Shown here: one piece after another, positions 9,585-30,601 of the stretch
Layout: every line of letters begins with the position of its first letter
Position numbering within the stretch: the first letter of the stretch is position 1
Virus record (IMG/VR): IMGVR_UViG_3300037722_001090
Direction: 5' to 3' (one strand)
Source: a virus
Taxonomy: Duplodnaviria; Caudoviricetes
DNA length: 64,000 nt
Notes under the pieces: generated by a model
What the model saw: the letters and a program-made list of their open reading frames with translations, nothing else
Database searches by the model: none
What the model was told of the DNA's origin: nothing
Made by a program: the position numbers and the translations under genes

Positions 9585-9998
9585 ATGGTAGAAATTAAAG
9601 ATACACCTACACAGGTAACTGAAAGCTCATTCTGGGACGAAATCGAATGGTCACAAGTAACGCATAATAAAATTGATAAGGGAGACTTCTTAAGAATAAA
9701 ATCTATTAATAGGAAGTTATATTCAACGTTTCTAGGCCCTGAATCAGGTACACAGTTTTATCTATATAAACCACTCTCTTGGGGCAAGTATAAGGAAATT
9801 AGATTAAAAGGATTAGATAAGGATACTACTCGTGAGTATATTATTAATTCATGTATTCTATGGCCTAACTTAGACCCTATTTCCGTTAGTAATCTCGATG
9901 CTGGGATTATGCTTACATTAACAAATCAAATCCTTACAGTTAGTAATTTCTTAAAAGACCCAGATAAAGCACTCGAACTCATACTAGAGATTGAATAA
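9585..9998 (+). CDS. Tail assembly chaperone 1
   Basis: 137 aa, just upstream of the tape-measure-like gene; pattern YKPLSWGKYKEI...NSCILWP...LDAGIMLTLTNQILTVSNF. Confidence 0.6.
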   Translation: MVEIKDTPTQVTESSFWDEIEWSQVTHNKIDKGDFLRIKSINRKLYSTFLGPESGTQFYLYKPLSWGKYKEIRLKGLDKDTTREYIINSCILWPNLDPISVSNLDAGIMLTLTNQILTVSNFLKDPDKALELILEIE

Positions 9999-10579
9999 TG
10001 GCAAAAAAATATAAAGTAAATGTTGCTGGACATGAAATCATATTTAGAGATATTTATGCTGAAGAGTCTGATAGGTTTATTTGGGCAATAAGGAAGAAAG
10101 ATCCTATAGCTGAAGAGTTAGTATTTAGAGAAATACTTCATGAATCATGTGATATAAATATTGATGAGTTACCAGCAGGAGTAATTCCCACTATAGTCTA
10201 TAGTGCTATTAAGCTTTCTGGTTACTTTCCAAAAGAATCAGACATTCCTAACATAATCGATAATGCAAGGAAATCAATACAGAATAATTTCTTCTCTATA
10301 TTCTATGCGACTATCATTAAGGCACAGCCTTCCTATAGGATAGATGAGTTGCAGAAAAAATCACTAGATGACCTACTTGCAATATATGCATTCAGTGAAA
10401 AGGTATTAGGTAAAGAAACTATTAATACTGATGAGATGCGCAAGACTCTTAAGAAAGAAAAAGAAAAAGAAAAAGGCGTTGCTAAGTCTGCAGGCGGACT
10501 AAGCAGTATTTCTACAGAAGAGCTTGAGTTAGTTAAGAGTATGATTAGTTCCGAAGAATTTAACTCAGAGATGTTTTAA
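9998..10579 (+). CDS. Tail assembly chaperone 2 (paralogue of chaperone 1 with C-terminal extension)
   Basis: 193 aa, TAATG-coupled at both ends. ELPAGVIPTIVYSAIKLSGYF matches chaperone 1; the extra helical C-domain is like the T part of G-T chaperones. Confidence 0.58.
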   Translation: MAKKYKVNVAGHEIIFRDIYAEESDRFIWAIRKKDPIAEELVFREILHESCDINIDELPAGVIPTIVYSAIKLSGYFPKESDIPNIIDNARKSIQNNFFSIFYATIIKAQPSYRIDELQKKSLDDLLAIYAFSEKVLGKETINTDEMRKTLKKEKEKEKGVAKSAGGLSSISTEELELVKSMISSEEFNSEMF

Positions 10580-13500
10580 TGACACAACCAATTAATCCAA
10601 ATCCATTTATATTAGCCATAGATACAGAAGTATCTGGATTACCTACTGACTTTTATGCAACCAGAAGACTTGGTGATCCTATTGATCTTAATATGGATAA
10701 AATCATGAAGTCATTTGGAGCTGTAGATATATTCCAGGTAGGTTTTATAGCTAATGGAAGTAGACAGCATATTGACGTAACAAACGCTAAGCTTGGCACA
10801 CAAGACAACTTATCTTTTGTTATGAAGAAAGATCACAGCTATGTAGGTCCGGATGGAAAGAAGGGTATATATAAGAAGGGTGGAACTGTAACTTCAACCC
10901 GCAACGGGATAACTGACTTTATACGAGGCAAGCACAGTAAGTTATCTTCAAAGCTAGCAGATAAATATGAGAGAGATGCTCTCCCTAGCTTACTTAAGAG
11001 AAGTATGCAAGAAACAGCTGTATTAGATAATGGATCTGTAATACAATCTATGCCTATGAAGCTTAGAAATAAGTCATATGAAGAGACTGCTAAGATTGCT
11101 AATGATAATGGGTTCTTTCATAAAAAAATTAATCAGGCTACTTTTATTTCTAAAAGAGATGACTCATTATATTCTATAATAGACAACCTTCTTGCACATG
11201 GATCAAAAAATTCACCAGCAGAATTTAGAGCTTGGAATCCACAATTTGATGCTAGTGTAATATTGGCTACATTACAAAAATCAGGACATAAAGACTTAGT
11301 AGATAAGTTTATTAATCAATATAAAACTGGTCTATTAAACATACAAGGTATAGAGGATAGTTGGCATAAAGTCTTATGGAAACTCATAAAAGAAAATCCA
11401 GATATTGCAACAACACCAAAAATAGGTATGCATCCAATAGCTGCAGCCGCTACTGGTCGTCCAGGTGCCACTGCAAACACATTTGAGGAGTTTAGACATT
11501 CAACATACAGTTGGAAACAAGACAAGCTAGCTAAGTGGTTCAACTTAAAGAACATTGATCATATTGCATCTACAGACATATTATCCTCTGTAACCTTTGA
11601 TGACATCATGCAAGGTGTAATTAAGAAAGCTGAAAGTGAATCTGGAATGACTTTTGCTCAGCTATTTGATAATCCAAATACTGGCGATTTATTTACCAGA
11701 GCACTTAATTCCAGTATGAACACTATGCATAATAATAACAATACTGGTACCGCAAGAAGACTATTAGGTGAAATAGCAGATGATGCAGCAGCAACACATA
11801 CATTTCATAGAAGAAACTTTGCTAGCTGGTTTGGGTCAGATATTACAACAAGAAGTAGAGCTAAGTGGAGTAAGTATCCTGGTATTATTGGTGCAGCATT
11901 AGTTATAGCTGGTGCTACTTTTTTTGGTAGAGGTGATGAGAAGGTAAGCATTAGTGATGGAAGCGTTGGTAAATCTGGTAAGAATTCTAAGATTGGCAGG
12001 GGCGTAACTGCAGATATGGACACTGATAGTCCGTATATTGGCACAGGCGTAGCTAAGGCAATGTTTGCAGGCATTGTTGTGCCTGGAATTACCATGGCTG
12101 CAGTAGGTTATGGTGCAGCACAAAGACATCCGATGTTAGGTTTCAATCCACAGAAACCAACTACATTTAAAGAGTTATATAAGCAAGGATTAAGTACTAT
12201 TAGATATGGTATTAAAACAGTAGAAGGACAATTCCCTTTAGCTAGGGTTTTTGGTATGGGTGCTATATCTGACTATGTACTAGGTAGTAGAAGCTATTGG
12301 GCAGATGCTGACGGCAATGGTATTGGAAGAACACTCTCTGGTAAAAAAAGACCAGGAAGATGGTTAGCGGCTGAAAGTTATCTAGACGATAAAGGCAAAG
12401 TAGTAAACAAAAATAAACTTATCATGACTGACCTTTTAAAAGATATACGTAAGGCTGATGAGGAATTATTTCATGCTATCGTAAATGGACTGGATCCTTC
12501 TGACATAGGTAAAGATGATGGAGGTAAAGTAGTTGTACGTAAGCAAGTTAGGTTTGCTAATACTACAGGAAGAAATACTATTGTTCAAGTAACTGAAGAC
12601 CATACTATCAATGGCATATATCATAAAGGTACACCATTTAGTAGAACAATTGCTATAGATGCAGCTCTTATGAAAATGAGAGATAGGCCACCTCAGTCTG
12701 CACGCCTAGCTAACAGAACGGTAGTTAATCCATCTAATGGAAAAGTATCACGCATACAAGGTCCGCATGTTACAAGCTCTATTGCACATGAGATAGCAGC
12801 TGGTCAGTTATATAAAAGCGGTAAATATGTAAAACCAGACTACAATGATTATATGAAAAGCTTAGACATGCCAGGATTTGCAAGCAGCAGTGAAATGGGC
12901 AATAAGGCATGGAGAGGTATGGAATTTGTACGTCACTTACTTGATCTAAATGCTAAAGGTGTTGGTGAAAAAAGTAACGTTTTCTATCCAGGCTTATCTC
13001 AAGAACTTGGTAGAGCAACTCATGTATTGTCTAATAGAACAGTTGGTGCATATGCTAAGGGTGCTGGAGATTATTTATTTGGTAATATGGACAAGTTCCT
13101 TGAAAGCCCTTTTGAGTTTTTAGGAGTTAATACTGAAAAGTTTACTGGATTTGCAAACAGACTGAAAGCCTCTAATTATATAACATCCAATATTGCAGGT
13201 AAAGTAATGTCTGCTATTGAAAGACCACATCTTGGTTTAGGATATGCTAGATATGGAAACCCTGCAAAGTACATGGGTGCATTTGCAGCTAAACGTGTAT
13301 TGCCAGCTATGATTGCATATAATGCATTCGGATTAGTAGATCACGCATTAGGTGCTGCAACTATGTCTCCAACTGGTCGTGGACCATTTACTGAGATTCC
13401 AATTAAGGCATTTGAAGCTGCGTCATTAGCTTATACAAAACTATCCGATATAACAGGACTAACTGACTGGGCTAAATGGCAAGATAGAGTAGCTCCTGGA

Positions 13501-16470
13501 TCTACAGGCATTGGTATTATGGCTCCTGCAGCAACAGCTACCGGTCTTTACTTTATGGGTGAAAAAATGTATCAGCATGGACCTGACTTTATCGGAGGTA
13601 CAATAGATAAAGCTGGCAGGAAAATGCTACAGCATCCACTTATGAGGGCTGCAGCTAGGCCTGAAGCGTACAAGGGCGCTTTAGCCCGAGGACCAGTTGA
13701 AAATCTATTGTCTTATGTTATTAAGAATCCAAAGAAAGGAATCTTTGGGTTAGCAATGCTACCATCAATTCCATTTCTACCCGGGTTCTTTGGTTCAGAT
13801 AAGAACTATGCTGAGAAGAAAGCTGAATATAAAGGAGAGAAAGAAGTTGCTATTCGTAAATATCGAGGATGGTTACTATCATCTTCTCCTTTTGAGGGCG
13901 GAAGAGTAAGATCATGGCGTAGACATTCACTAAATCTTATCGAAAGTGATTTTGAAAACAGAGGCGTTGTCTATCCTTCATTCACAGATCGCTTTATGCA
14001 TAATGCATCTCTTGGTATGTATAAACCTAATATACTAGAAGACTACCACGGAGATGCACAGCCCGTATATAAATCCTCTCCTTGGGGAACAAACGTACCT
14101 CTTGTTGGTCCAATTATAGCAGGAACAATTGGCAAGCTAATTGGAACCAAAACATATCACACACCAGGAGAGTATGCACCAAGAGAAGTTCAGGAGTATG
14201 CTGGTGACGGAGCAAACCATGATCAGGAATCTGGTCTATCTAGAAGTGTAGAGATGGGTACAGTCAAGAAGTTATTTGGTGATGATCAGAATAAAACTGG
14301 ATACATGATAGGACTACAGGATCCATCGTCACTTAATTCTTTAGCTTCTAGGTTTGCAGACAGCTTAGGAGACCTATCTGGTTTCCGTGGATTCTCACTA
14401 CAAACAACGTATGAAAAAATGGCAGGCAAGAACCTACCAGATAAATATACACCATATGCACAAGATAGTAGCCAAATGTATAGTCCAGCTGAACAGATGT
14501 GGCAATACAATCTTGGTGATATTACTGTAGTCGGTGGCGAGTTTATGCGTCGTATATTACAGAACTCAGAGAAAAAATGGGAAGTTAACGATATTCCCAA
14601 TGAGTTATTTGGTGTTAGCTGGATTCCTCAAGCCGATGACCAAAGAGGTACAACTAAAGACTTAACTCACGGGACTACCTTTAATAAAGTAGATATGGGT
14701 TGGCTATATGGATCTAGAAAAGGATGGGAATTCTTATATCCAGGAGAAGCAAAAGGAGACATGGAATCCTATAGTGCTCCTCTTAAAACAGAGATTCTTC
14801 AGCAACTAGCTCCTTATTCAGCTAAATTTAATGAAGCAGCTAAAGAGACATACGGTCAAGCTATAGGGGGTCAGTTAAGTCCAAAGCAAGAACAAAGATT
14901 CTATGAAACACTAGATCAAGTATCACAAGTAAAACAACAACTATATGCTACAGCTGGTGAGTATTCATTTGCACTTGATACAGAAGCAGAATCTGGTATT
15001 GTAGATACTGTACAAGATGATGGTTCTTTTAGTATGAAAGGTAAAAACTATAGGCTTGCAGGTGTATCTTTACATGAGGCAGATATAAGAGCTAGGCTTT
15101 TACAAAAGAACGAGTATAATAGTGCACAGGCGCTTGCAGATGATGTAGCATCAATCAGAGAAAGAACTGCTCAAATCATAAGTAAACACTTAGGTCCGGG
15201 CAGAGAGGTTAGTTTTAATAAGGCCACAGCTACTATGTTACCTTCCGAGACAGAGTCTGGTATAGAAGTTCAAATAGATAGCCTTACAGAGGAACTGTGG
15301 AGCGCTGGTGCACCTTTTGCGAACACTGGCAACCTTGCTTCCCATAATATAGCACAAGACAGAGATGGTATTATGAGCAGGGTATCGGCTGCATATTGGG
15401 ATGGGCTTACTGCTACTAACTCTTATTGGAATAAAAAGCTAATATCTAAACGTGACTACTTAGATAATTATACAACTAATCAGGTATATAATAGAGAAGT
15501 TAAACTTTGGACTAGACCTATAGAACATATTGTTAAGCCATTTCTAGCATCTACAGTTCATAATCTTACAGGCATAGATTTCATACCATCATTCACTAAA
15601 GAAAGAAGAGCTAATCAGCAATACTGGGATGTAGTAAAGTATATAAAATATAAAATGTTATCTGGCAGAGCTAAAGATGAAGGTGACATGGAATCGGCTG
15701 CTTTCTTTGAGTCTCAATGGAGAAGCACAATGATTGGTGCTGACCCTACAGATAGTAGTATGAAAGACGTACTTAATGCTCTTCCTGTAAATGAAAGACA
15801 ATATTTTAATAACTTTGCTAATGAACCGGATCCAGAAAAAAGAAAAGAGATCTTTGGGTATTTACCAGAACAAGCAAAGAGACTTTACTCTAGTATATGG
15901 ATGAGGAAAGCTGCAGCTGCATCTAATGACCAGCAACTACTTGCAAACTGGAGTAAGCTTCAAGAATCTGAAGGATGGGATTTATCTGAAGACGAAGAAG
16001 CTGAGTATGCTAATGAAACAGGTGGACGTGCCTCTAAGGCTGATTGGGCTAGAGCTAAGTATGTTCAGTCATATGCACAGAAAAGAAACCTTCCTGGAGC
16101 AGAATGGTCTGGATGGAATGAGAGCGTTGACATAAATAACGTTCAATTATTAGCATTACAAGAAGATGGAGAGAACGTACAAGATTACGGATTCTTCGAT
16201 AGTAATATAAGACAAGCAATTTATGATGATTACGCATATGCCGCCGCTACAAGCTACGAATCAATGTCTGTATCAGCTAATGTAATTATGGGCGATATAA
16301 CACCGATGCTAATGGAAGACTCTGTTATGTCTGCATATGCGACACCGACGTCATCTATGTCACCAATTAGAGAAGTAAATATAGAAACTAATGGCTTTGC
16401 AAGAATACTTGATAAGTTAAACAATTTTGGAAGTGAAATACTAGATGATTATTTTACGGACCCTTACTAA
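10579..16470 (+). CDS. Tape-measure-like giant virion protein with N-terminal DEDDh exonuclease-like domain
   Basis: 1963 aa directly after the chaperones; Ala/Gly-rich with several hydrophobic segments. N-terminal motifs LAIDTE (D15,E17), AWNPQFD (D224) and HIASTD (H328,D333). Confidence 0.7.
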   Translation: MTQPINPNPFILAIDTEVSGLPTDFYATRRLGDPIDLNMDKIMKSFGAVDIFQVGFIANGSRQHIDVTNAKLGTQDNLSFVMKKDHSYVGPDGKKGIYKKGGTVTSTRNGITDFIRGKHSKLSSKLADKYERDALPSLLKRSMQETAVLDNGSVIQSMPMKLRNKSYEETAKIANDNGFFHKKINQATFISKRDDSLYSIIDNLLAHGSKNSPAEFRAWNPQFDASVILATLQKSGHKDLVDKFINQYKTGLLNIQGIEDSWHKVLWKLIKENPDIATTPKIGMHPIAAAATGRPGATANTFEEFRHSTYSWKQDKLAKWFNLKNIDHIASTDILSSVTFDDIMQGVIKKAESESGMTFAQLFDNPNTGDLFTRALNSSMNTMHNNNNTGTARRLLGEIADDAAATHTFHRRNFASWFGSDITTRSRAKWSKYPGIIGAALVIAGATFFGRGDEKVSISDGSVGKSGKNSKIGRGVTADMDTDSPYIGTGVAKAMFAGIVVPGITMAAVGYGAAQRHPMLGFNPQKPTTFKELYKQGLSTIRYGIKTVEGQFPLARVFGMGAISDYVLGSRSYWADADGNGIGRTLSGKKRPGRWLAAESYLDDKGKVVNKNKLIMTDLLKDIRKADEELFHAIVNGLDPSDIGKDDGGKVVVRKQVRFANTTGRNTIVQVTEDHTINGIYHKGTPFSRTIAIDAALMKMRDRPPQSARLANRTVVNPSNGKVSRIQGPHVTSSIAHEIAAGQLYKSGKYVKPDYNDYMKSLDMPGFASSSEMGNKAWRGMEFVRHLLDLNAKGVGEKSNVFYPGLSQELGRATHVLSNRTVGAYAKGAGDYLFGNMDKFLESPFEFLGVNTEKFTGFANRLKASNYITSNIAGKVMSAIERPHLGLGYARYGNPAKYMGAFAAKRVLPAMIAYNAFGLVDHALGAATMSPTGRGPFTEIPIKAFEAASLAYTKLSDITGLTDWAKWQDRVAPGSTGIGIMAPAATATGLYFMGEKMYQHGPDFIGGTIDKAGRKMLQHPLMRAAARPEAYKGALARGPVENLLSYVIKNPKKGIFGLAMLPSIPFLPGFFGSDKNYAEKKAEYKGEKEVAIRKYRGWLLSSSPFEGGRVRSWRRHSLNLIESDFENRGVVYPSFTDRFMHNASLGMYKPNILEDYHGDAQPVYKSSPWGTNVPLVGPIIAGTIGKLIGTKTYHTPGEYAPREVQEYAGDGANHDQESGLSRSVEMGTVKKLFGDDQNKTGYMIGLQDPSSLNSLASRFADSLGDLSGFRGFSLQTTYEKMAGKNLPDKYTPYAQDSSQMYSPAEQMWQYNLGDITVVGGEFMRRILQNSEKKWEVNDIPNELFGVSWIPQADDQRGTTKDLTHGTTFNKVDMGWLYGSRKGWEFLYPGEAKGDMESYSAPLKTEILQQLAPYSAKFNEAAKETYGQAIGGQLSPKQEQRFYETLDQVSQVKQQLYATAGEYSFALDTEAESGIVDTVQDDGSFSMKGKNYRLAGVSLHEADIRARLLQKNEYNSAQALADDVASIRERTAQIISKHLGPGREVSFNKATATMLPSETESGIEVQIDSLTEELWSAGAPFANTGNLASHNIAQDRDGIMSRVSAAYWDGLTATNSYWNKKLISKRDYLDNYTTNQVYNREVKLWTRPIEHIVKPFLASTVHNLTGIDFIPSFTKERRANQQYWDVVKYIKYKMLSGRAKDEGDMESAAFFESQWRSTMIGADPTDSSMKDVLNALPVNERQYFNNFANEPDPEKRKEIFGYLPEQAKRLYSSIWMRKAAAASNDQQLLANWSKLQESEGWDLSEDEEAEYANETGGRASKADWARAKYVQSYAQKRNLPGAEWSGWNESVDINNVQLLALQEDGENVQDYGFFDSNIRQAIYDDYAYAAATSYESMSVSANVIMGDITPMLMEDSVMSAYATPTSSMSPIREVNIETNGFARILDKLNNFGSEILDDYFTDPY

Positions 16471-16483
16471 ACGGAGTTAACAA

Positions 16484-19400
16484 ATGGCAAACAATCCATA
16501 CTATGAAGAAAATAGCGGCTTTGGTAGTGTATTAAAAGGTGCATCTTTTGCTGGCGCAGCTGGTGCATCTTATATGGCATATAAGAACCCTGAAGCTACT
16601 ACCCGTGTATTTAATCGTGTAGTTAATTCTGTTGCACCACTAAAAGCACCTGAGCTTAATCCATATCAAAGCAACATAGTTAGTGCTAGAGAGGCAATCT
16701 TCAGTACTATGGAAGCCAGAAATATACGTAGAGTAGCTTTAGATAAAGATATGCAAGCAAGAGCTTTACAGACAATCGGTAATGTAAATAACTGGGGTAC
16801 TGTAAGTGCTGTAGGTGCTGGTATAAAAGGTGGCAAATCTGATTCATTTAAAAGCCTAACTGATATTCTAGACATAGAAGGTAATGAAATAGGGACAAAA
16901 ATACATAACGCACTAGAGAAGAGATTTAATTCTAAAATCGATGCTCCTAAATTTAGTGGAACAAGAGGAACCTGGAAGATAGCAGGAGAAGATTTGTCTA
17001 TTGATTTCTCTAAAAAAGGACTAGATTCAGGACTAGGAAATTCATGGTTCAAGCGCGTTGGAGAGTCTTATTATGCTTCACCTTATCAGTCTAAAATGGC
17101 TAATCGTGGCGGAGGGAAGCTTGGATATGATGTAATGAGTCCAAATGAATTTGTATTAAATGTGCTACAAGAAGAAAATGCTGGGAGTGGAAGACTGGCA
17201 TATGTAGAGAGTCCTACTAAGTTTAGGAACGCATATGAAAAGGTAATAGGAGAGAAAGTTACTGGACTAAGTGGACATGACGATGCTGTTAAGTATGCTG
17301 TTCAGCAAGTACGTAAAGAAATAGAGTTAGGATCTAATGCTAGTGTTAGCAATGTAAGAACTATGCAAAAGGCTTTAAAGAAAGTATTTAATACAGATAC
17401 TATGTTTGTAGAAACTGACCCAGTAAAGCTTGGCTTATTTGGCAGTGAAGTTCGCGTAGAAGAATATTCTAGATATATACTTGGTAATACAGAACCTGAA
17501 TTTAAAGGTGTAGGTTCAAACCGCGTAGGCAGAAACATGAATAGTCTTACAGGAGGAAGCGTAAACATAGAAGGTAATGCACTTAAAGTAGCATATAATA
17601 TTCCTCATGATGCAAGAACTGATAGTTCTTTAATTAGGATTGTTAATGGTAGTGGCGCTACGTTGAAAAGTAAAAATGCTACATTTATGCAAAAAATGAT
17701 GTCTCTGTTTGGTGGATATAGGCTTGGACAAGATCCTTCATCTGAATTTGCATGGGCTGTTAGACCTACTGTTCTTCCTGTTATTGCGGAAGGAGATAAG
17801 TCTATGAAGGGTGCTTTATGGGCAGATGATAATACCGTTATTAGAAAAAATGGCACTCAGGGTATTTCTATGGGAAAGGAATATTTCAGAGGAACAGGAA
17901 CAAAAAGAATTGAAGCACACAGACTTGAAACATTAAGGCATATGTCTTTTATTGACGACACTAAGATTACTGAAGCTGCTGCTTCAAGCTCAGATTATGT
18001 AAAGGGTAAAATATATTCTCAGCAAAATAAAGGCATTTATAATATGACAATGGCTCTTAACCCGTTTTCTGAAGAGTCTATTCAAGTAAGTTCAGGTATG
18101 AGTAAGCATATGAAAGTTCTTATTCCAAAAACAGCTACTGTGGACACAATTGCACTTAAAGGAGAAGAATCGTATAGGAGGTCGCTACTTACACTAATGG
18201 ATGCAAACGGTGTATTAGATAAGGAATCATTTACTATAAAAGAAATAATGGAAAGTAAAGCTTTATCAGAAAGAGTTAGTACTGGTCAATCCAAAATTAA
18301 GATAGGAAGAGGGACATATCTAGGCAGAAAGAACATAGGTATGGAAATATCTAATGCTGAAGACTTTTACTCTACATTTGAAAGAGACGGAGAGATTATT
18401 AAAGCAAAAGTAGATATGTATATAGACAGTACAGACTTTAATCAAATGGTCGAATCAAATCAAAGAATGATGGGTGAAGGACATAAGCATGCAGGAGGAG
18501 TTAAATATATAGCTAAGGCCATGGATGACCCTGCTAAAGTTGCACTTACTGGTATAAGAGCCCGTGGAGCTTATGCAGTTGGCGATGACGGATTACTTAA
18601 TAGTTTATATGCAAGTGCAGGACTAGGTAATAAGCAAGAAGCTACTATTTCTCTTGGTATGTTTAAAAAAACATTCCCTAAGATTTCTAATAACAGCCTT
18701 CTTCTTGGTAAAGATTCACCTGAACTATTACACTTTACACAATCTGCACTTGGATGGCAATCCTTACAAAGTAGCATGGATATAACATTAAGTAAAAATG
18801 CCGCTGATCATTTTGTCGGTAAATACGTAAATGATGCATCAAAAGTATTAGGCAATCAAGATTATTATACTGGAAGAGGTGCATCTAAAAAGTTTAGCTT
18901 TAGTAAGGCTATGCGAGATGGAGCAATATCTTTTACTCAAAGAACAGAATCAGATGCTGCATTTGCACAGCAATATCAAGACACTGTACAGGTGCTTGGT
19001 ACTGCGCGAAGAGAATGGGGTAATAATCGTAAAGTTGCACACATAGAAAGCTTCTCTACGACTAATGCTAAAGATGCTGCTAAAGTTATAGATAATCAAA
19101 TTGAAGCAATAGACAATATGGGCAAGCTTGCAAAAGGTGAATATGCTGTAAGGCTATTTAATAAACAGGTAGATGCAAAAGAGCTTGGAGAACAAGCCTT
19201 AGTTAGGACAAGAGTATCACAAGGTAGTAGTGCTGGTCTTGGATCGACAAAAGCACTCACAATGGGTATTCTTGGAGGACTTCAACCTCAGGAACAAAAC
19301 TGGCTAGCTCTTGGTGGTGAATTTAATAAGATGCGTATTTCATGGAGAGATATGTATCACTTTACAGACAAGGCAGATATACTAAGAGATATTTCAGTTA

Positions 19401-21973: not shown

Positions 21974-21980
21974 GGTAGAT

Positions 21981-24900
21981 ATGGCAATTTCTAATAAAGA
22001 GTTTATTGATGTGCTTAAAGCAGAAGGCTTATGGCCACCACAGGCAAATGCTGAAGCAGCATATGGAGCAGTTGAGTTTCCAGTAGGAAAACTTAAAATT
22101 GATGGAGATGCCTCTTTTACATCTATTTATGTAATGGACGGAGATACCATTGAGTTACATAAGCCCGGATATGTATTTAGTACAACAGGAGATCATGGCA
22201 CAGTACCCGCCGAAGGCATGGATGGCATGGCAACCTCTCTTCGTTATTATGGCTTAGATACAAAAGAGACAGCAAAAGAGGGCACAGGTAAAGCTGCAGA
22301 GCCATATGCTAATTGGCAAACTAGGGCAAACTTAGCCTTATTTAAATATGCAGAAAGAACAGGTAAAAATGTTGATGTTACTGGATACAATCAAGATGCT
22401 TACAAGAGAACAGTTGCTGCAATAAATATTGATGGTACGGATGTAGCTGATCTCTTTGTACGAAATGGTATATCTGCCGCAGGTACCGCCGCAGAAGCAG
22501 GCTTTGTACCTGAAGGGGGGATAACTGTTCGCTCACTGCAAGAATCAATGAATGAGGCAGCAACTAAAGGCTGGGGTCTATGGAATAAAAATCAAATTTA
22601 TGATGTCTTAAGAGATGTAAATAAAGAGACTGAATATCTTGATGGTTATATTAATGATCGATTTGGTAAAGCTAAAAGCATGACAGACGATACTGTTAAG
22701 CTTGGAGACGTATATCTTGATATACCTCCTACACACATAAGTATTAATCAGTTAAGAACATCATATTCTACACCACAATTTGGTGGCGAATCAAAGCCAA
22801 CATCTACAAGTACAGCGCGAACAACTATAAAGCTAAACCTTATTTTTAATGGTGAAGACTCAGTAAACGATGATTTTAAAAGAATCTATTGGCAGTTTAT
22901 CTATTGTCCAATTAACTTACTGTATTCAAAAGATATATACGAGAAGGTTGTTTCAGATAATCCTTATATAGCTAGGATGAATACTGCCACAATTAACACT
23001 GAAGAATCGTCTTCTTCTAAGTCATCTTCGTATTTTATCCCTGTAACTATGGATAGTTGGACCGTATATACTATTGAGGGTCATCCAGGGTCTATTGGAT
23101 GTACAATACAGCTATCTATCTTTAACTATTCTGCATACTTTGAAGGTGCAGGTAATGGCGTTGAATACTATACATATAGTGATAATCCAGGAAAGCATGG
23201 TAATGCAGTTAGATACACTAAGCACCTAGAAGAAGCTATTCACCCATATAACCAATATATCATGAAGCACCTCGGTAATAGCATTCAGCACTTTGATGCA
23301 TCAGATAGTCGCACTCTTATTTTTAAGGTTGAAGATAATAAATCTAGATTTGAAGGTAAACAAGAAGATATTAATGAGGATGTTTCAGATTTATCTGAAT
23401 ATCTAAAAGTTATACTTGAATCAGAAGTTGATGAATTAATGGTTAATGGTTCTGTAACTTTTCATAATAACTTTGCATGGTTACCAATTATAGGATATAC
23501 GCAACCAACAGCACAGTATATTGGTCCTGGTGAAACCAATATGTCACTAAGTATTAGAACTAAAAACAATAAAACCATATCAGGACTATTAGCAACATTT
23601 GGTGAAATGGTTCTTGATAGAACTAAACATACATACTATGATGATAGATACTTAGTGTCCAACTCGCTGTCTAGGCTATGTAAGGCTTCTGTTTGTTCAC
23701 TACGTAATATCTCAATTACAAACGTAGATCATCACCCAGGATGGTCCGATATTAATATTCAGCTCTCTAAGTCTTCCTATGCAGATCATCAGGATGAAGT
23801 AAACCCAGCTGCAGAATTTGATGAATATTTTGGACTACAAAGGTTGATTAAAGCTGCAAATGTAGATGAGGTTATGGAGGCTCTTGAAAGAGAACTTAAA
23901 CTAGCTGACATGACAGATATATCTCTTCCTGCAGAAGATGATTTGCTAGGACAAATGTGTATACTCTCTGGTATAATAAATGCACATTCATACATTAGTG
24001 ATGAAGCATACCTTGGGTACAATGAAATACTTTCTAATATACGTGCTTTTAAAGCAACTATTAATGATAAAGACATGAAAGAGCTTGGATTTTCTAAGCC
24101 TCTTATGGGAGACATAAAAAGTCTAGAGGTAAAAGGTACGGACATAATTGATCGTATGTTCATTCAGTCTCTACCTATATCTGTAAAATCTGACCCTAAA
24201 CAAATGAAAGCAATAGTTGATTTCGAAACATACTATAATGCTAAGAAAAAAGCAGGTGTTGTTAATGAATTTGATTCTTTTGAAAGCGCACTTAGAGGAG
24301 ATAATTCTAAAGAGGGTTTTGAATTAAGAGCAGAGATGATAGATAGGTATTTACCTCTTGATGAAATGATAGATATGACAGGTACTAAAAATAAAATAGT
24401 AGATGTAAATAAACACCTATTTAATGCCTGGGAAGAGTATTGGGGAGATAGACATACAGTAAGGTCGCTAAGCAGTGTATATATAAAAGATTTATTAGCT
24501 AGTGGTGTGGACACATCAGTATATGATGAAGAAATGGAAAATATAGTATATAGGATACTTAGATCCATATCTAATGAAGGCATGATGTTAAGTTACCAGA
24601 AGGCTTGGAATCCGCTAGCTCTTTCAATGGCTCGTGGTCATGCAATTGTTTTTAAGTTTACTGGTACAATATTAGAAGCACAAATAATTAAAGCAGCCCT
24701 TAGGGTTGGAGATGAGACATCATCTATAATTGGAGAGGCAGCTAGTTTTGGTACGCATGGATCTAAAGCAAGAAAGTTTTTTAGTTTACAAAACAATGTT
24801 AAATATCCATCTATTTCAGTAAAGTTAACTTGTCATAATAAGGATGTTGCATATAGTGAATATAGCACTAGTATGTCAGAGGCATCAAAAGAGGCATCAT

Positions 24901-27900
24901 GGTCTTTAGCTACTGCGTTTAGAGCTAAAAAAAGTAATGATGCTATATCTAGCTTTACGGGTAATGATAAGATTAACCAATCAGAAGTAAGTAAAGAGCT
25001 AGCTCTTTTGCGCGAGGATATGGAAGATGTTGCTTTTAGCAGAATACCTATGCCTCATGCAGCACATAGATACTTTCCTTTTATAGATCAGTATATTAAA
25101 CATAGCGAGCTTTTCTCTGCAAGCATGGGTGATTGGTTTAGAAATACAGCAGAAGACGATCCTTATTCATTTTTTGAAGAAGTAAGCGAAACTGTTGAAA
25201 ATTCAGTATCACCGCTCATGAACAATAAGGGGTGGACATCAACTTATCTTCAAAAAAGATATGGAAATACATATATAAACAAAATCAATGAAGATATTAA
25301 TGACCCATCTAAAATAATGGAAGCACTTTCTTTACCTGTATCATCGAAGGATTCAAGCGATAGAAATAAAGATGGATCACTTGCAAGACTTAAAGACGGT
25401 AAGATGGATACATCTATGCCTAAATTTAGTAAAGATATGGTAACAGACTTGCTTGGTAACTATAAGTATGATGAAGACATTGACAATAAGCCATATAGTG
25501 GAACTGTTCATTCAGGAGTATTTATTGCAGGATTCTATGATGGTGCAAAAGATGGTAAGAGAGCAAAAGATTTTAGACAAAATACATATGATACACATTC
25601 TATATGGCTTGATAGTGACGGTGCAATAAGCGGTCTTTATAATAAGCTAAATAGAAATCAATTAGTACCAAACGGAAACATGTTAGTAGAGGCTTCAGAA
25701 GCTCGCGAAACTAATGTTGCCTCAACATTAATTAATGGTGTAGGAAGAAGTTTAGCTGGTCCAATAGATACATCAGTTAAGTATGCTGGTGTATTTAAAT
25801 CAACATCACTTATAATGGCGCTTAATAAAAATCCTAAGATGTTCATGATAGAAACAGATAGGATACCTCCAGCACAATTTGCTCTTGGTCCAGATAGTGG
25901 ACTTAATATTGTTCAGGCTGATGAAAAAATATTGACTATGTTTGTTAGAGCTATTACATCTATACATAAAGGTGGCAGTGCTACAGATTATAAGAATATT
26001 GGATGGTCAGATCGTGCATCTAGACATTATGCTAAGGTTTTAGTTGCAGAAATTAAAACTAAATTAAGAGCAAGTGGATATTCAGACAGTTGTATTTACT
26101 ATGCTAAGCAATCAGAAGTTTCTGCTTTTGTAGCACAGAAAGAAGCTATATCATATGAGGAAGGTGCACCAGAAGAAATCTTTATGAGGGCACTAAGATT
26201 AAGAGCTGACAGTAATTTGCCTGTAGCTGACTTTGTTGATGATCATACAAAAAATATAGTTGCAAGACAATCTATGGCTTCATTAATGTCAACTACATGT
26301 TTAGAGAATGCTTTCCCTACTTATAAGCTATACATTATTGAAGAAGATACATCTGACATTAGGTATTTTTCACTAGACGATTATTATGATCTAAGAACAG
26401 CACAAGACTTAATGATTATAAAATCAAAAGATAATCCAGTACATATTCTAAAAGGTAGAATAATAGTAGATCCAAGATACATAACTGTTACAGATAAGGT
26501 AAAACAAAAAGTATCAAAATACAATGAAGATAGTGAACATGAACTAAATGAGCCATCATTACAGTTTATTGATACTAGGCTTGAAAACTACTTCAATAAA
26601 GGTTTTACACCTTTAAGAGAAGGTATGCGAGTTTGCGTTAAGCTTGGATATCATACTGATCCAAGAATGCTTGATACAATATTTATTGGTACTATTACTG
26701 GATTAAAAGGTAACATGACTTCTGGTGTATATGAACTTGAAGCAAAAGGTGATGGAAGAGAATTATTATCTCCTCCTAGTCCAGAGCTAAGGCCTAACGT
26801 AAGTGGTAAGAACTTTGCAGAGGTAATATCAAAGATACTTAGAACTAATCCAAGTATTATTCACTTTGGTAAAACATATGGATCTTTCATTGAAAAATTC
26901 TCTAGAGATCACTATACATTACTTGCAATAGCTAAGAATGGACTTCTGCAAGGAAGCTCAATGGCAGGTGGTGGACTAATGGGCACAATTGCAGTATCAT
27001 TGTCAATGGCATCTCCACAGAGAGCTATGTATAAGGTTGGAGCTAGAGTAATTGCTGGAATAGTAGGTATAGGTGCTGGTGGACTTATGGCTCAACTATA
27101 CAGCCCAGTACCATATAGTTTAATACAGAAAAGTAGAGATAAGTTTAAGCACGAAGCATTAGCGCAGTATAGTGGACATATATTCAAAGGGCTTTGGTTT
27201 TCAGAGGAGTTTAAAGCTGCAAACTTTTCACAAGCAAAAAAATGGATTCAAGGACATACATTCGATCCAGCAAAAGCGGCAAGAGAGGTTGCAGAGATAT
27301 CTTACAATACACTTAAGTATGGTAATGATCCTATTGATGACAATATATTAGCAGTTGATATTTGGCAAACAGGAATGACTCCATGGAAAACATTCAATAT
27401 GCCTGTTAATGGAGCAAGAACCGTATGGGACATTCTTGTAGATATAAAAAGAATGTATCCTAACTTTGCACTAGACATTAGGCCATATGGCAATAGATCA
27501 ACATTATTTATGGGGCCTTATGAGTCTGAAATGTGGAGAACAGATGACCCTCTACAGGCAATGGCTCCACAGTTATATCAAATGAGCAACGGAGCACCTT
27601 GGGCAGATGGACAGGCTTACGCTGAGCATACTAAGGCTGCTATTGAAAATATGGTTACTAGAGATCAGTTTCATAATGCTACTCCAAATACACGTAATAT
27701 AGCGCCTAGAGAGCCATTCCAAAGAACACACTTAGTGTCTTCCTTTAGCGATATAATTATGAATGGAGTTAGATCTACACCATATAGGGGATGGAACGAT
27801 GTAATAGTTTCTTACTCTAAAGATCCAGATGATGATGATTCGCCTCCAATTGTAAATCAAGTTGTTAATGCACAGCTAGATCCTAAAGCTAAAAGGACAA

Positions 27901-29396
27901 AGTATGTAAACCTTGACTGGACAAATGATAAGCAAATGGCTAATGCATATGCTTTAGGTTTCCTTAAAGAAGGTGTTGGTAAAATGTACGGAGGGACACT
28001 AAGCATTAGAGGTAACTCTAAAGTTGAACCACACGATAAAGTATATATTTGCGATTCAGTTAATAAAATGTTTGGATGGATAGAAGTAGAAACAGTAATA
28101 CATAAGCTAGACATGAATACTGGATTTACTACACATATTGTTCCAAACATGGTATGTTCAATTAATGATGATGCCTATACAACAACAAGTCAGTTGTTCC
28201 GTAAGAAAATGCTTGGCAGTGTAGCTAAATTAATTTTACATACAGCAGCCGCTTATCCTGCAGGTATTGCACTGACTGCCGTGTTAGCGCCAGTATTAGG
28301 CTCTGCCGCATTTATAGTCGGTATTGTACTTGGTACAGCTGCTCTTGGATATACTGTGTATCAATCAGCCAGTGCAATAAAAAGTAAAGCTGAAGCTATT
28401 ATGACCGAGGCTACAGCTAACGGACTTATAAAAGAAGAACAGGAGTATATTCAGCATAAGCTTCAAAACATACTAATGGTGTCTACTATGAAGTCATCTT
28501 TCGATTTGGGTATATTCTCACACTATGTATTGAAGTTTACTGGCGGACCAGGTAACATTAAAAGGAATGTTCTTGCATACACAACTAATACGGCAGAAAG
28601 AGCAGCGCTTATAGAAAAGGTTTCAGCGGGATCTAAGGCAAGGTTTGCAGTTGCAAGCAATTATATAGCTAAGCTCAGCAATAAAACTGGTGTTACCTCT
28701 ACATCAAAAATGAAGAAAATACTAGATGATGCAGCTAAAAAAATGGGAAGAGCTCCAATTAACTTTGACGACTACGAAGTAAAAATGGCTGCTGCTGTAA
28801 CACCAGAAGAAAGAGTTCTTCAAAGAAAGATGTTAGCTATAGAAATTGAAGATTTAGTTAAAGAAGCAGCTAATGATTTTTCTGACGATGTTAAGACTAA
28901 AATTACAAGCACAATAAACGATCCTGCTGCACTAGATAAACTAACAAACTCTTCAGTCATTGAACCTGAGATACCAAAAGCAGGAGATGGTAAGGTTAAT
29001 ACTAGAGCTGCCGCAGCTAAGCCATTTAAGCCAATAGCAACCAAAGCTAATCTAAAAATAGCAGCTGGTGGATTCTTAGCCTTCCTAGCACTTGGAGCCG
29101 AGTTATTACCTTTAGGTTTTGAAACTATTGCTATGAATGCAATGCTTAAGTCTAATGTAATATTTTGTTCACCATTAACACACAAGTCAAGTCAAATGAT
29201 GACTGGACTAGAAGGCTATATTAATCAGTCTTCTTATCTACACCTAGGAAGTATGATTATTCATGCTAAGGACTTTATGAATGATGCTATTGATTCTGTT
29301 AGGAATTGGGACCAGGTAGTACAAATAGGTGACTCTTCATATTCTAAACTTACAAATGTGTTCGGTAGATCAGTTGATGATCAGGGAGGTATGTAA
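21981..29396 (+). CDS. Giant baseplate hub-like protein with N-terminal staphylococcal-nuclease (SNase)-like domain
   Basis: 2471 aa. Residues ~45-201 contain VMDGDTIEL, LRYYGLDTKET, DAYKRTVAAI, LFVRNG and AATKGWGLW. The late region has a hub signature (MYGGTLSIRGNSKVEPHDKVYI...IEVETVIHKLD...GFTTHI). Followed by the spike gene. Confidence 0.72.
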   Translation: MAISNKEFIDVLKAEGLWPPQANAEAAYGAVEFPVGKLKIDGDASFTSIYVMDGDTIELHKPGYVFSTTGDHGTVPAEGMDGMATSLRYYGLDTKETAKEGTGKAAEPYANWQTRANLALFKYAERTGKNVDVTGYNQDAYKRTVAAINIDGTDVADLFVRNGISAAGTAAEAGFVPEGGITVRSLQESMNEAATKGWGLWNKNQIYDVLRDVNKETEYLDGYINDRFGKAKSMTDDTVKLGDVYLDIPPTHISINQLRTSYSTPQFGGESKPTSTSTARTTIKLNLIFNGEDSVNDDFKRIYWQFIYCPINLLYSKDIYEKVVSDNPYIARMNTATINTEESSSSKSSSYFIPVTMDSWTVYTIEGHPGSIGCTIQLSIFNYSAYFEGAGNGVEYYTYSDNPGKHGNAVRYTKHLEEAIHPYNQYIMKHLGNSIQHFDASDSRTLIFKVEDNKSRFEGKQEDINEDVSDLSEYLKVILESEVDELMVNGSVTFHNNFAWLPIIGYTQPTAQYIGPGETNMSLSIRTKNNKTISGLLATFGEMVLDRTKHTYYDDRYLVSNSLSRLCKASVCSLRNISITNVDHHPGWSDINIQLSKSSYADHQDEVNPAAEFDEYFGLQRLIKAANVDEVMEALERELKLADMTDISLPAEDDLLGQMCILSGIINAHSYISDEAYLGYNEILSNIRAFKATINDKDMKELGFSKPLMGDIKSLEVKGTDIIDRMFIQSLPISVKSDPKQMKAIVDFETYYNAKKKAGVVNEFDSFESALRGDNSKEGFELRAEMIDRYLPLDEMIDMTGTKNKIVDVNKHLFNAWEEYWGDRHTVRSLSSVYIKDLLASGVDTSVYDEEMENIVYRILRSISNEGMMLSYQKAWNPLALSMARGHAIVFKFTGTILEAQIIKAALRVGDETSSIIGEAASFGTHGSKARKFFSLQNNVKYPSISVKLTCHNKDVAYSEYSTSMSEASKEASWSLATAFRAKKSNDAISSFTGNDKINQSEVSKELALLREDMEDVAFSRIPMPHAAHRYFPFIDQYIKHSELFSASMGDWFRNTAEDDPYSFFEEVSETVENSVSPLMNNKGWTSTYLQKRYGNTYINKINEDINDPSKIMEALSLPVSSKDSSDRNKDGSLARLKDGKMDTSMPKFSKDMVTDLLGNYKYDEDIDNKPYSGTVHSGVFIAGFYDGAKDGKRAKDFRQNTYDTHSIWLDSDGAISGLYNKLNRNQLVPNGNMLVEASEARETNVASTLINGVGRSLAGPIDTSVKYAGVFKSTSLIMALNKNPKMFMIETDRIPPAQFALGPDSGLNIVQADEKILTMFVRAITSIHKGGSATDYKNIGWSDRASRHYAKVLVAEIKTKLRASGYSDSCIYYAKQSEVSAFVAQKEAISYEEGAPEEIFMRALRLRADSNLPVADFVDDHTKNIVARQSMASLMSTTCLENAFPTYKLYIIEEDTSDIRYFSLDDYYDLRTAQDLMIIKSKDNPVHILKGRIIVDPRYITVTDKVKQKVSKYNEDSEHELNEPSLQFIDTRLENYFNKGFTPLREGMRVCVKLGYHTDPRMLDTIFIGTITGLKGNMTSGVYELEAKGDGRELLSPPSPELRPNVSGKNFAEVISKILRTNPSIIHFGKTYGSFIEKFSRDHYTLLAIAKNGLLQGSSMAGGGLMGTIAVSLSMASPQRAMYKVGARVIAGIVGIGAGGLMAQLYSPVPYSLIQKSRDKFKHEALAQYSGHIFKGLWFSEEFKAANFSQAKKWIQGHTFDPAKAAREVAEISYNTLKYGNDPIDDNILAVDIWQTGMTPWKTFNMPVNGARTVWDILVDIKRMYPNFALDIRPYGNRSTLFMGPYESEMWRTDDPLQAMAPQLYQMSNGAPWADGQAYAEHTKAAIENMVTRDQFHNATPNTRNIAPREPFQRTHLVSSFSDIIMNGVRSTPYRGWNDVIVSYSKDPDDDDSPPIVNQVVNAQLDPKAKRTKYVNLDWTNDKQMANAYALGFLKEGVGKMYGGTLSIRGNSKVEPHDKVYICDSVNKMFGWIEVETVIHKLDMNTGFTTHIVPNMVCSINDDAYTTTSQLFRKKMLGSVAKLILHTAAAYPAGIALTAVLAPVLGSAAFIVGIVLGTAALGYTVYQSASAIKSKAEAIMTEATANGLIKEEQEYIQHKLQNILMVSTMKSSFDLGIFSHYVLKFTGGPGNIKRNVLAYTTNTAERAALIEKVSAGSKARFAVASNYIAKLSNKTGVTSTSKMKKILDDAAKKMGRAPINFDDYEVKMAAAVTPEERVLQRKMLAIEIEDLVKEAANDFSDDVKTKITSTINDPAALDKLTNSSVIEPEIPKAGDGKVNTRAAAAKPFKPIATKANLKIAAGGFLAFLALGAELLPLGFETIAMNAMLKSNVIFCSPLTHKSSQMMTGLEGYINQSSYLHLGSMIIHAKDFMNDAIDSVRNWDQVVQIGDSSYSKLTNVFGRSVDDQGGM

Positions 29397-29770
29397 TGAG
29401 TGACTTAAGAGATTTAGATAGTGGAGTAAATGAAGCTAAAGGAGATATCGGTAGGTGGCAAGGCATAAATAGTCAGGCCAGACAAGTCTCAATAGCAGAA
29501 GTAGTAAGTGAAGATACTTCAAAAAATATCTTTATTATCTACTTTAAGGATGATAAAGTTGAGGTTCCTGCAGTATTGTTGGGGAACCTCAACGGAATCA
29601 TTGGATCAGCTACTCCAGAGGTTGGAGAGTTAGTATTAGTGGTGCATAATGAAACATCAGATGCTATAATTATTGGACTATTGGATAAGCAAAGATCTAT
29701 TCCATGGGCAGATAACAGTAAGTCAAGTGCATATAATAAAAATGGCATTATAGGTGCAATGGGGAATTAA
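29396..29770 (+). CDS. Central spike N-terminal OB-fold protein (gp5/GpV-like)
   Basis: 124 aa right after the hub; SIAEVVSED...PEVGELVLVVH...AIIIGLL is the typical spike OB-fold pattern. Confidence 0.6.
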   Translation: MSDLRDLDSGVNEAKGDIGRWQGINSQARQVSIAEVVSEDTSKNIFIIYFKDDKVEVPAVLLGNLNGIIGSATPEVGELVLVVHNETSDAIIIGLLDKQRSIPWADNSKSSAYNKNGIIGAMGN

Positions 29771-29772
29771 TA

Positions 29773-30168
29773 ATGACAATTAAGAATACAGAACTCAGCA
29801 GCTTTGGCACACAAAACGACAAACAAGATCCTAGTCAAGCTCCTATGGTAAATCCGGATTTAGATGAAAGAAAGATATCAACACGCACTGGTAATGCACA
29901 AATTATTATTAAAGATAATATATTGCTATTATCAAATAGAGCTAATGGAATAATGATTAATGAAAGAGGAACAGTTGTATGTAATCCCTTACATATAGCA
30001 ACAGATCCATCTACTACTAGGATAAACTCATTCTGGGTAATTAATGACGAAATTATGACAGGATTACCATCAACAATTTATACACCAATGCCATTATTAA
30101 AATATAAACGTCCCGCAATAGCAGATCAGATTTCTGATTTAGCAAAAAAGCTTGCTGCAATAGGATAA
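29773..30168 (+). CDS. Putative spike-associated baseplate protein
   Basis: 131 aa with short beta-strand repeats (NAQIIIKDNILLLSNRANGIMINERGTVVC), between the spike OB-fold gene and the gp25-like gene. Confidence 0.4.
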   Translation: MTIKNTELSSFGTQNDKQDPSQAPMVNPDLDERKISTRTGNAQIIIKDNILLLSNRANGIMINERGTVVCNPLHIATDPSTTRINSFWVINDEIMTGLPSTIYTPMPLLKYKRPAIADQISDLAKKLAAIG

Positions 30169-30170
30169 GC

Positions 30171-30184
30171 GTTATTAACAAATA
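30171..30184 (+). promoter_or_regulatory. Candidate late-promoter/operator motif GTTATTAACAAATA
   Basis: In the short gap upstream of the baseplate wedge genes; matches 2440 and the minus-strand copy inside the intron. Confidence 0.35.
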
Positions 30185-30198
30185 GTCAGGAGTAAACA

Positions 30199-30600: not shown

Positions 30601-30601
30601 T

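Follow-up and report, generated by a model that had tools for sequence, protein, structure and literature searches.

An uncultured contractile-tailed jumbo phage with a predicted single-chain two-barrel RNA polymerase encoded at the tape-measure position

Three very large adjacent genes lie in the tail region of the viral genome represented by IMG/VR record IMGVR_UViG_3300037722_001090, and the middle one very probably encodes a single-chain two-barrel RNA polymerase (RNAP). The window, that is, the whole stretch of DNA analysed here, comprises 64,000 nucleotides (nt) and corresponds to the reverse strand of bases 5160-69159 of this 107.9-kb record; coordinates below are those of the window unless stated otherwise. 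CheckV rated the record as 52% complete, from which a genome of roughly 200 kb is estimated. Its source is an uncultured jumbo myovirus, with a contractile tail, of the Bacillus phage 0305phi8-36 lineage. The three giant open reading frames (ORFs) are the following.

10579-16470, plus strand: gene 1 (P0001), 1963 amino acids (aa), a DEDDh exonuclease, a transmembrane helix and a gp145-like virion-protein body (ORF)
16484-21973, plus strand: gene 2 (P0002), 1829 aa, a predicted single-chain two-barrel RNAP in the tape-measure slot (ORF)
21981-29396, plus strand: gene 3 (P0003), 2471 aa, an enlarged baseplate hub with an N-terminal SNase domain (ORF)

The ORF list agrees exactly, in lengths and limits, with a sequence-only reading of the window, which had described three coupled giant tail genes and proposed them as an injected payload of nucleic-acid enzymes. 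The start of gene 1 overlaps the stop of the gene before it, inside the triplet the gaps measure 13 nt and then 7 nt, and the gene after the triplet starts at 29396, the last base of the block. Within 10579-29396, ten terminator-like sites were found against 10.0 expected, promoter-like sites were in no excess over chance, and the composition profile showed no break. A Kyte-Doolittle scan also bore out the hydrophobic Gly/Ala segments that had been described in all three giants.

An exhaustive search of 1.84 billion representatives placed P0002 in a family of 45 clusters, mostly of 1700-1850 aa. Conservation was read from an alignment of 26 full-length relatives, 18-40% identical to P0002, across which 24 columns are invariant. 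The features of gene 2 on which the polymerase assignment depends are these.

18281-21193, plus strand: polymerase core as modelled, residues 600-1570 (AF2 pLDDT 76, pTM 0.67)
18536-18712, plus strand: candidate first (beta-like) barrel, residues 685-743, with K685, R694 and K743 invariant in the 26 sequences
20393-20524, plus strand: catalytic (beta-prime-like) barrel, residues 1304-1347, with the motif R-x-P-x-(I/L)-Y-x-x-S ... (N)ADxDGD
20711-20863, plus strand: bridge-helix-like helix of 51 residues, residues ~1410-1460 (model 811-861), with T1436, K1437 and G1441 invariant
21638-21970, plus strand: C-terminal hydrophobic helix (residues 1719-1740) and a tail of ~90 aa (Kyte-Doolittle scan)

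In the catalytic barrel, residues R1304, P1306, D1343, D1345, G1346 and D1347 do not vary among the 26 sequences, and the consensus reads NADxDGD. Six of the seven best matches of the family core profile against PDB were beta-prime subunits of RNAPs (phiKZ gp55 with E 0.005, bacterial enzymes and AR9), and all the beta-prime matches align on the catalytic block. Structural searches with the core model retrieved the same subunits. The top 50 Foldseek matches were, without exception, RNAP beta-prime chains, and ranks 1-12 of the VIA search were occupied by the largest RNAP subunits of phages, bacteria, archaea, eukaryotes and large DNA viruses, with Z 8-9. VIA also recovered the single-chain two-barrel enzymes QDE-1 (Z 7.4), P74-26 gp62 (Z 6.2) and P23-45 gp96 (Z 5.1), whose alignments run from model residue ~80 to ~890, a span that covers both predicted barrels.

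Evidence for the first barrel comes from the start points of these alignments, which lie near model residue ~80 for QDE-1, gp62, gp96 and RDR2 and at residue 395 or beyond for chains with the beta-prime part only, and from the location of K685, R694 and K743 in a beta-strand region of the model. At the other end, alignments to beta-prime/Rpb1 reach model residue ~885-891, past the long helix. A flexible 'EQxxISSKH' segment follows this helix, with Q1485 and K1491 invariant and with low pLDDT at model residues 881-892. By analogy to beta-prime, the long helix fits a bridge helix, and the 'EQxxISSKH' segment is a possible trigger loop. The C-terminal hydrophobic helix, about 100 aa from the C-terminus, is kept in 25 of the 26 relatives, and the highest column identity of the family is found in the last 130 aa.

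Ordinary sequence searches were silent on P0002: no significant match was obtained in Pfam (metallopeptidases included) or among PHROGs, phmmer against PDB gave nothing useful, neither megablast of the 18.8-kb block nor tblastn of P0002 found a match among 50,697 phage records, and a viral-contig locus search with P0002 returned no related locus. The invariant residues in the alignment, together with the beta-prime matches by profile, Foldseek and VIA, nevertheless uphold the two-barrel RNAP that had been proposed from motifs, and we regard the assignment as very likely, with the first barrel as its least secure element. As far as the alignment can tell, the invariance of the metal-binding Asp residues, of R-x-P, and of the basic and bridge-helix residues signals selection on catalysis.

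Ejection of a large RNAP had been linked in the sequence-only reading to podovirus-type heads, but a tail-borne virion RNAP is already established in the siphovirus P23-45 (PMC10770324). Its protein gp96 joins the tail tape measure to a two-barrel RNAP of the virion, which transcribes the pre-early genes, including the gene of the non-virion RNAP gp64, and is thought to act at the envelope pore as DNA enters; Chaban et al. propose that it couples DNA translocation with transcription (PMC10770324). P0002 resembles gp96, as well as the proteins of P74-26, G20c and TSP4, in combining a predicted single-chain two-barrel RNAP, the tape-measure position and hydrophobic or membrane segments in one polypeptide. 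A second, early two-barrel RNAP, here a candidate recognised by its motif, would be a further likeness, and in both phages detection at the sequence level depends mainly on the DxDGD loop. However, P23-45 is a siphovirus whereas the phage of the window has a contractile tail, and the polymerase is placed in the middle of the 1829 aa of P0002 but at the N-terminus of the 5002 aa of gp96. Unlike gp96, P0002 has no detected metallopeptidase domain, and the tail proteins that flank it carry DEDDh and SNase modules. Neither phmmer nor the PDB profile search recovered gp96 (PDB 8h2n) with P0002, and its VIA match, at rank 50, scores under QDE-1 and the beta-prime subunits. By analogy, then, P0002 is a protein that would work like gp96 while standing outside the gp96 family.

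The crAss-like and N4-like phages are podoviruses in which a very large polymerase is packaged in the capsid and ejected for transcription of early genes; N4 vRNAP belongs to the T7-like class and is unrelated to the two-barrel enzymes. The virion RNAPs of these phages share giant size with P0002, but no sequence relation to P0002 was detected. One of them, gp66 of the crAss-like phage phi14:2, is described, as cited in PMC10770324, as a giant protein that contains a two-barrel enzyme in a single chain. The multisubunit RNAPs, virion and non-virion, of phiKZ-like and AR9-like phages (PMC7598289; PDB 7ogp, 7s00), also jumbo myoviruses that bring their own RNAP, match the catalytic barrel of P0002 best in both the profile and the structural searches. 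They consist, however, of 4-5 subunits encoded outside the tail module, whereas P0002 apparently has both barrels in one chain encoded among tail genes.

A literature search found no contractile-tailed phage described with a two-barrel RNAP at the tape-measure position, no P0002 family and no fusion of DEDDh to gp145, and in a survey of jumbo phages a YonO-like RNAP is the single one given for 0305phi8-36. Virion RNAPs fused to the tail tape (PMC10770324) and SNase-bearing hubs in this lineage (PMC2147016) are already known, while the RNAP in the tape slot of a contractile-tailed phage, the P0002 polymerase family and the fusion of DEDDh to gp145-like proteins appear to be new.

The setting of gene 2 is that of a regular tail module. 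By blastp, the window is colinear with 0305phi8-36 and with Acinetobacter phage ME3 in the order gp136, gp138, sheath, tube, tube paralogue, gp142, chaperonin and gp145, continuing through the gp146 slot to gp147, the small baseplate genes and the gpJ-like gene. In the 0305phi8-36 record (NC_009760), gp145 and gp146 are noted as virion proteins by mass spectrometry. The presumed tape measure of that phage is gp146, mainly since its length correlates with tail length, and gp147 belongs, in hyperplastic form, to the T4 gp27 / P2 gpD hub family, with exchangeable enzyme domains at its N- and C-termini (PMC2147016). These domains are peptidoglycan hydrolases in gp147 itself, and an N-terminal staphylococcal nuclease was noted in 2007 in the hub of the BtI1 prophage (Hardies et al., PMC2147016). 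SNase-like modules are also present within the hubs of ME3 and of the Moorella phage MTATph1. With gp146 and ME3 gp036, P0002 has in common only the slot and Gly/Ala-rich hydrophobic segments near both ends; in both 0305phi8-36 gp146 and ME3 gp036 a Gly/Ala-rich helix lies ~110 aa from the C-terminus.

The triplet also recurs in synteny elsewhere, as the sequence-only reading had suggested might be looked for. Five metagenomic contigs have the same order of products, namely ~135 aa, ~195 aa, ~1970 aa, RNAP of ~1800 aa and 2450-2980 aa, the pair of ~135 and ~195 aa preceding the triplet in L005, L007, L009, L010 and L015. The RNAP of these five contigs is 20-40% identical to P0002, and its gene is located between gp145 and gp147 homologues in every contig that extends far enough to include the two.

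A horizontally inserted cargo island, which was considered as an origin of the triplet, is ruled out by the colinearity with 0305phi8-36 and ME3 and by the unbroken composition. Judged by gene order and similarity, the block is the lineage's usual gp145-gp146-gp147 tail-lumen/hub set with exchangeable enzyme domains, and not a foreign payload; the idea of a special inserted block gives way to a normal triplet. The phage of the window shares with 0305phi8-36 the colinear tail module, the large proteins, the enzyme domains grafted on conserved structural cores and a separate RNAP outside the structural genes, here a candidate and in 0305phi8-36 the non-structural RdRP/YonO-like two-barrel enzyme of orf99. 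It differs in that gp146 has no DxDxD, gp145 has no DEDDh, and gp147 has peptidoglycan hydrolases in place of SNase.

Gene 1 combines an enzyme with a conserved virion protein, and homologues of 1951-2002 aa are syntenic in five other contigs. Its parts are as follows.

10600-11628, plus strand: DnaQ-like DEDDh 3'-5' exonuclease domain, residues ~8-350 (invariant residues and fold model)
12046-12120, plus strand: hydrophobic helix, residues 490-514 (Kyte-Doolittle scan)
13096-16467, plus strand: highly conserved body, residues ~840-1963 (~1100 aa), homologous to 0305phi8-36 gp145 and ME3 gp035

Across the six homologues, which are 18-45% identical in the exonuclease region, the invariant residues are D15 and E17 (Exo I), W219 and N220 (Exo II), and H328, A330 and D333 (Exo III); D224 of Exo II is kept in five of the six and is E in the sixth. 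An insert of ~200 aa separates Exo I from Exo II. All 50 rows of the VIA search with the AF2 model of the domain (pLDDT 70) were DEDD 3'-5' exonucleases, with Z of at least 8 for 34 chains. The best match was the exonuclease of S. aureus DinG (Z 11.5 over 174 aa, 3.2 A), followed by ExoI (10.9) and Pol III epsilon (10.8), and RNase T and TREX1 were also among the matches. In Foldseek the top match was a T4 gp43 exonuclease fragment, and the best matches were exonuclease domains of family-B polymerases. Sequence searches gave no Pfam match at E up to 1 for P0001 or its residues 1-450, RNase_T (PF00929) included, and profile A4 of the domain retrieved no exonuclease from PDB, so that the domain is confirmed through its fold. 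Residues and modelled fold together identify the N-terminal domain as a divergent DEDDh exonuclease, in agreement with the DEDDh motif noticed earlier. Like DnaQ/RNase T exonucleases such as Pol III epsilon, ExoI, the DinG N-terminal domain and TREX1, it has the fold and the Exo I/II/III residues, with His in Exo III; unlike them, it has the long insert and precedes, in the same polypeptide, a membrane helix and a virion-protein body of 1400 aa.

The hydrophobic helix of gene 1 is found at an equivalent place in five of the six homologues. The same helix is at residues ~31-51 of 0305phi8-36 gp145 and of the Moorella homologue, where the exonuclease is absent. Since these cultured homologues start directly at the helix, the exonuclease appears as an N-terminal addition in the clade of the window. 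The body matched ME3 gp035 (blastp E 5e-14), Moorella phage CDS0026 (4e-10) and 0305phi8-36 gp145 (4e-8); Pfam, PHROG and Atlas gave no lead to its function, phmmer of P0001 against PDB gave nothing useful, and no PHROG match was significant. In Moorella phage MTATph1, as another case of exchangeable enzyme domains in this lineage, the middle protein CDS0027 (L012:15513-19442) has an RNase_T (DEDDh) match at residues 962-1065 (24.2 bits, cut-off 24), and a transposase gene is inserted between CDS0027 and the hub gene.

Gene 3 encodes the hub, and its recognised parts are these.

22239-22586, plus strand: SNase domain, residues 87-202 (or 203) (PF00565)
26268-28280, plus strand: hub core of the gp27/gpD/Mu gp44 type, residues ~1430-2100 (blastp, PHROG, Atlas)
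27036-29132, plus strand: hydrophobic segments, residues 1686-1708, 2084-2128 and 2358-2384 (Kyte-Doolittle scan)

The hub core matched ME3 gp037 'baseplate hub' (blastp E 6e-14 and 3e-12), the Moorella homologue (9e-14) and 0305phi8-36 gp147 (7e-9), as well as phrog_20474 and phrog_8809, and in Atlas language-model features it scored 0.94-0.95 to GpP/Gp44-like hub clusters; phmmer of P0003 against PDB gave nothing useful. Homologues of 2483, 2979, >2646 and >1529 aa follow the RNAP gene in L007, L009, L010 and L015, and gene 3 homologues have 2-3 hydrophobic segments each, in varying places. The SNase domain that had been read from motifs exceeds the Pfam cut-off of 21, with 26.1 bits for whole P0003 and 29.7 bits for residues 1-260. 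Its signature (DGDT ... R..G.DTxE ... KR) has survived intact in P0003, L015 and L007, whereas L009, L010 and L006 have degraded forms. With half of the six homologues degraded, nuclease activity seems optional in the clade, although the copy of P0003, judged by its signature, may be active. The view that catalytic motifs are conserved across homologues therefore holds for the RNAP and, apart from the one D224 substitution, for DEDDh, and fails for SNase, which cannot be taken as a conserved host-takeover function.

The genes around the triplet complete the tail module.

3200-5935, plus strand: tail sheath, 911 aa (phrog_16991 tail sheath, E 4e-19; blastp to ME3 gp029 and to 0305phi8-36 gp139 sheath)
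5997-7983, plus strand: tail tube at 5997-6611, matched by blastp to 0305phi8-36 gp140 (tail tube, E 3e-23), and its paralogue at 6724-7983, matched to gp141 (tube paralogue)
9585-10579, plus strand: two small genes of 137 and 193 aa at the tail-chaperonin position, the 137-aa product matching ME3 gp033 'putative tail chaperonin' (blastp E 1e-9)
29396-31816, plus strand: baseplate genes, comprising three small ORFs (124, 131 and 133 aa) and, at 30602-31816, the gene of a gpJ/gp6-like wedge protein (phrog_6 baseplate wedge, E 4e-23)

Upstream, terminase, portal and major capsid genes precede the sheath, the tube, the tube paralogue and the two small genes. A chaperonin in two-gene form is also known from orf143/144 of 0305phi8-36 (PMC2147016). 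Downstream, the small baseplate genes lead to the wedge gene, and blastp of this group gave 0305phi8-36 gp151 (P2 gpJ-like, 8e-11) and ME3 gp039 and gp040. The triplet had been placed between tail chaperones and spike: it does follow the sheath, tube and chaperonin genes and precede the gpJ-like wedge gene, but the supposed spike, the 124-aa ORF at 29396-29770, showed no detected similarity to 0305phi8-36 gp148 (P2 gpV-like), to which it corresponds by position alone.

Three further observations concern this region. The tube and tube paralogue match phrog_9206, whose label 'major head protein' is a mislabel carried over from 0305phi8-36 records; it is misleading because the notes of the 0305phi8-36 record itself say tail tube and tube paralogue. 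Just past the baseplate and fibre genes, a 288-aa Cas4/RecB-like exonuclease is encoded at 42647-43513 (phrog_1706, E 7e-20, and phrog_1990), which parallels the RecB gene gp190 of 0305phi8-36. At about 58.5 kb (58528-63969) the sign of the GC skew and the gene orientation flip, marking the end of the long rightward structural operon.

A counterpart of P0002 might exist in a cultured phage. The middle member of the triplet of vB_AbaM_ME3, gp036 (NC_041884.1 33172-37983; L011:15173-19984), is annotated as 'hypothetical protein', and its family of nine members, down to 20% identity, has an invariant R-E-P-A-Q-G..S-S ... D1217-x-D1219-x-D1221. In this family 'ENLLKSSH' follows DxDxD, at the place that corresponds to 'EQxxISSKH' in the P0002 family. 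Comparison of the two families by hhalign gave a single weak match, which falls exactly on the catalytic block (E 0.0014, probability 18%). Motif invariance and this alignment make up the case, since phmmer, Pfam and a search of profile A7 against PDB found no RNAP match for ME3 gp036. As a lead, ME3 gp036 is possibly a divergent RNAP.

A second RNAP candidate, P0049, is encoded outside the window, at ~95826-99449 of the record on the plus strand (L004:6927-10550:+). It has 1207 aa, carries the motif 'GRNPVVGDGNF...GDVDGD' and lies among tiny early genes on the strand opposite to the structural module; tblastn of P0049 against cultured phages found no match. Near it, at L004:4690-6940 (record ~93.6-95.8 kb), there are mini transcription units in which a GC hairpin with a T-run is followed by 'TTATTAGG' and then by a box. 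This box resembles 'ATG(C/T)A(C/T)ATATA' and lies 10-20 nt before the ribosome-binding site, and a related version is directly upstream of P0049. The box could be a promoter for a phage polymerase. As a genome-wide polymerase-specific promoter it is unsupported, the motif being restricted to a stretch of ~1.3 kb with no genome-wide enrichment. A frame of 942 aa antisense to P0049 (L004:7272-10100, minus strand), with no PHROG match, is most likely a chance shadow ORF.

How P0002 might work can be proposed from these elements. We consider it rather probable that the tail set of this clade carries an intact polymerase, built into the tail and injected on contraction, which starts phage transcription, with the nucleases as accessory components. 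P0002 would be made late and built into the tail interior or the hub region, and contraction of the sheath would expel it into the cell envelope, where its C-terminal hydrophobic helix could hold it at the site of DNA entry. There it would transcribe the phage genes that enter first, including the gene of the second, early RNAP, as in P23-45. The DEDDh domain, on the gp145-like protein, and the SNase domain, on the hub, would be accessory modules riding on delivered scaffolds, with host nucleic acid, defence signals and extracellular DNA as candidate targets. The domains, their conservation, the synteny and the kinship of genes 1 and 3 with virion and hub proteins are shown by the data; we infer the virion location of P0002, its ejection, its polymerase activity and the two-polymerase cascade from analogy and from gene position.

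Several findings weigh against this proposal. Blastp and hidden Markov models (HMMs) of the P0002 family, both full-length and C-terminal, revealed no meaningful similarity of P0002 to gp146, ME3 gp036 or Moorella CDS0027, blastp of the whole P0002 family against the same three proteins gave noise, and profile A2 had no match in the whole 0305phi8-36, ME3 and MTATph1 records, so that it is position that places P0002 in the virion. The Foldseek TM-scores of the core are low (0.07-0.32), because the match covers part of the model, and the first barrel was assigned from alignment ranges and invariant basic residues alone. A globular polymerase core makes up about half of P0002, which fits poorly with a tape measure that sets tail length and with transit through the tube lumen; P0002 would have to be unfolded or sited at the hub. 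The SNase active site is not conserved across the clade. As for the cascade, P0049 was identified by motif and context, and hhalign of A2 against P0049 detected no relation to P0002; the two RNAPs are for this reason not claimed as paralogues.

The lack of similarity to gp146, which is confirmed in virions by mass spectrometry, leaves room for an active enzyme that never enters the virion: a product of the late tail operon that would serve the cell in which it is made, perhaps by transcribing late or very late genes, in a genome that already has another RNAP candidate in P0049. We hold this to be unlikely. The gene is embedded between two homologues of virion proteins, with gaps of 7-13 nt and no internal signals, its position is conserved in relatives down to 20% identity, and the conserved hydrophobic helix and C-terminal tail are unexpected in a soluble transcriptase. 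A late-made enzyme would, moreover, be most useful if carried into the next cell, as are the virion RNAPs of N4, crAss-like phages, phiKZ and P23-45 (PMC10770324, PMC7598289). Slightly less likely still is a tail-delivered P0002 whose main job is another one, whether as a motor that pulls in the genome of ~200 kb, as a primer-maker for replication or as an RNA-dependent polymerase. Membrane anchoring through the C-terminal helix would suit a fixed motor, the coupling of translocation with transcription proposed by Chaban et al. for gp96 points the same way, and two-barrel enzymes include RNA-dependent polymerases, among them QDE-1 with its Z of 7.4; the strongest structural and profile matches, however, are to DNA-dependent beta-prime subunits. 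The polymerase fold might also be catalytically dead, co-opted as a structural part of a tape-measure or plug protein. Decayed enzyme domains are frequent in phage tail proteins, and the neighbouring SNase is without catalytic residues in half of its homologues, yet 26 sequences at 18-40% identity show no change in the Asp triad, in R-x-P, in the basic first-barrel residues or in the residues of the bridge helix, which makes this reading highly improbable.

The tail-delivered polymerase that we favour is compatible with more than one role for the nucleases. SNase-type enzymes are typically secreted and calcium-dependent, for which reason the SNase of the hub, and perhaps DEDDh, might act outside the cytoplasm, clearing extracellular or envelope nucleic acid rather than host DNA. 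The SNase lies at the N-terminus of the hub and its activity is dispensable in half of the clade, and the end-domains of these hubs are interchangeable with cell-wall hydrolases and thought to occupy the position of a tail lysozyme (PMC2147016). For the DEDDh exonuclease this fits less well, as it is N-terminal to a membrane-type helix on a separate protein and its conserved active site suggests a more essential role; on balance, extracytoplasmic action remains a minority view. About equally tentative is a more ambitious version of the delivery model, an entry factory in which the three giants are expelled together and their helices form a conduit through the envelope, with the enzymes facing the cytoplasm. 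The RNAP would then both transcribe and draw in the leading end of the genome, DEDDh would act at the entry site, and ME3 and its relatives would have the same design with a more divergent polymerase (DxDQD).

These results speak to the way in which very large phages launch their programme inside a hostile cell, for which the known solutions are the capsid-packaged polymerases of N4, crAss-like and phiKZ-like phages and the one polymerase fused to the tail tape, that of a Thermus siphovirus. If the tail set does carry an active polymerase, delivery of a transcription enzyme by the tail would be more than a one-off, and the known polymerases would be joined by a new, compact single-chain family of beta/beta-prime-like type with about 45 sequence clusters. 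It would also pose a physical puzzle, that of a folded enzyme of ~100 kDa sitting in, or travelling through, a contractile tail. Through the possible counterpart in ME3, a cultured phage, the idea can be put to experimental test. Entries annotated as 'hypothetical protein' or 'tape measure' in this lineage may hide polymerases and nucleases, and tail-borne transcription, if the entry-factory version that includes ME3 is true, would be widespread and so far unrecognised in jumbo myoviruses of the 0305phi8-36 type.

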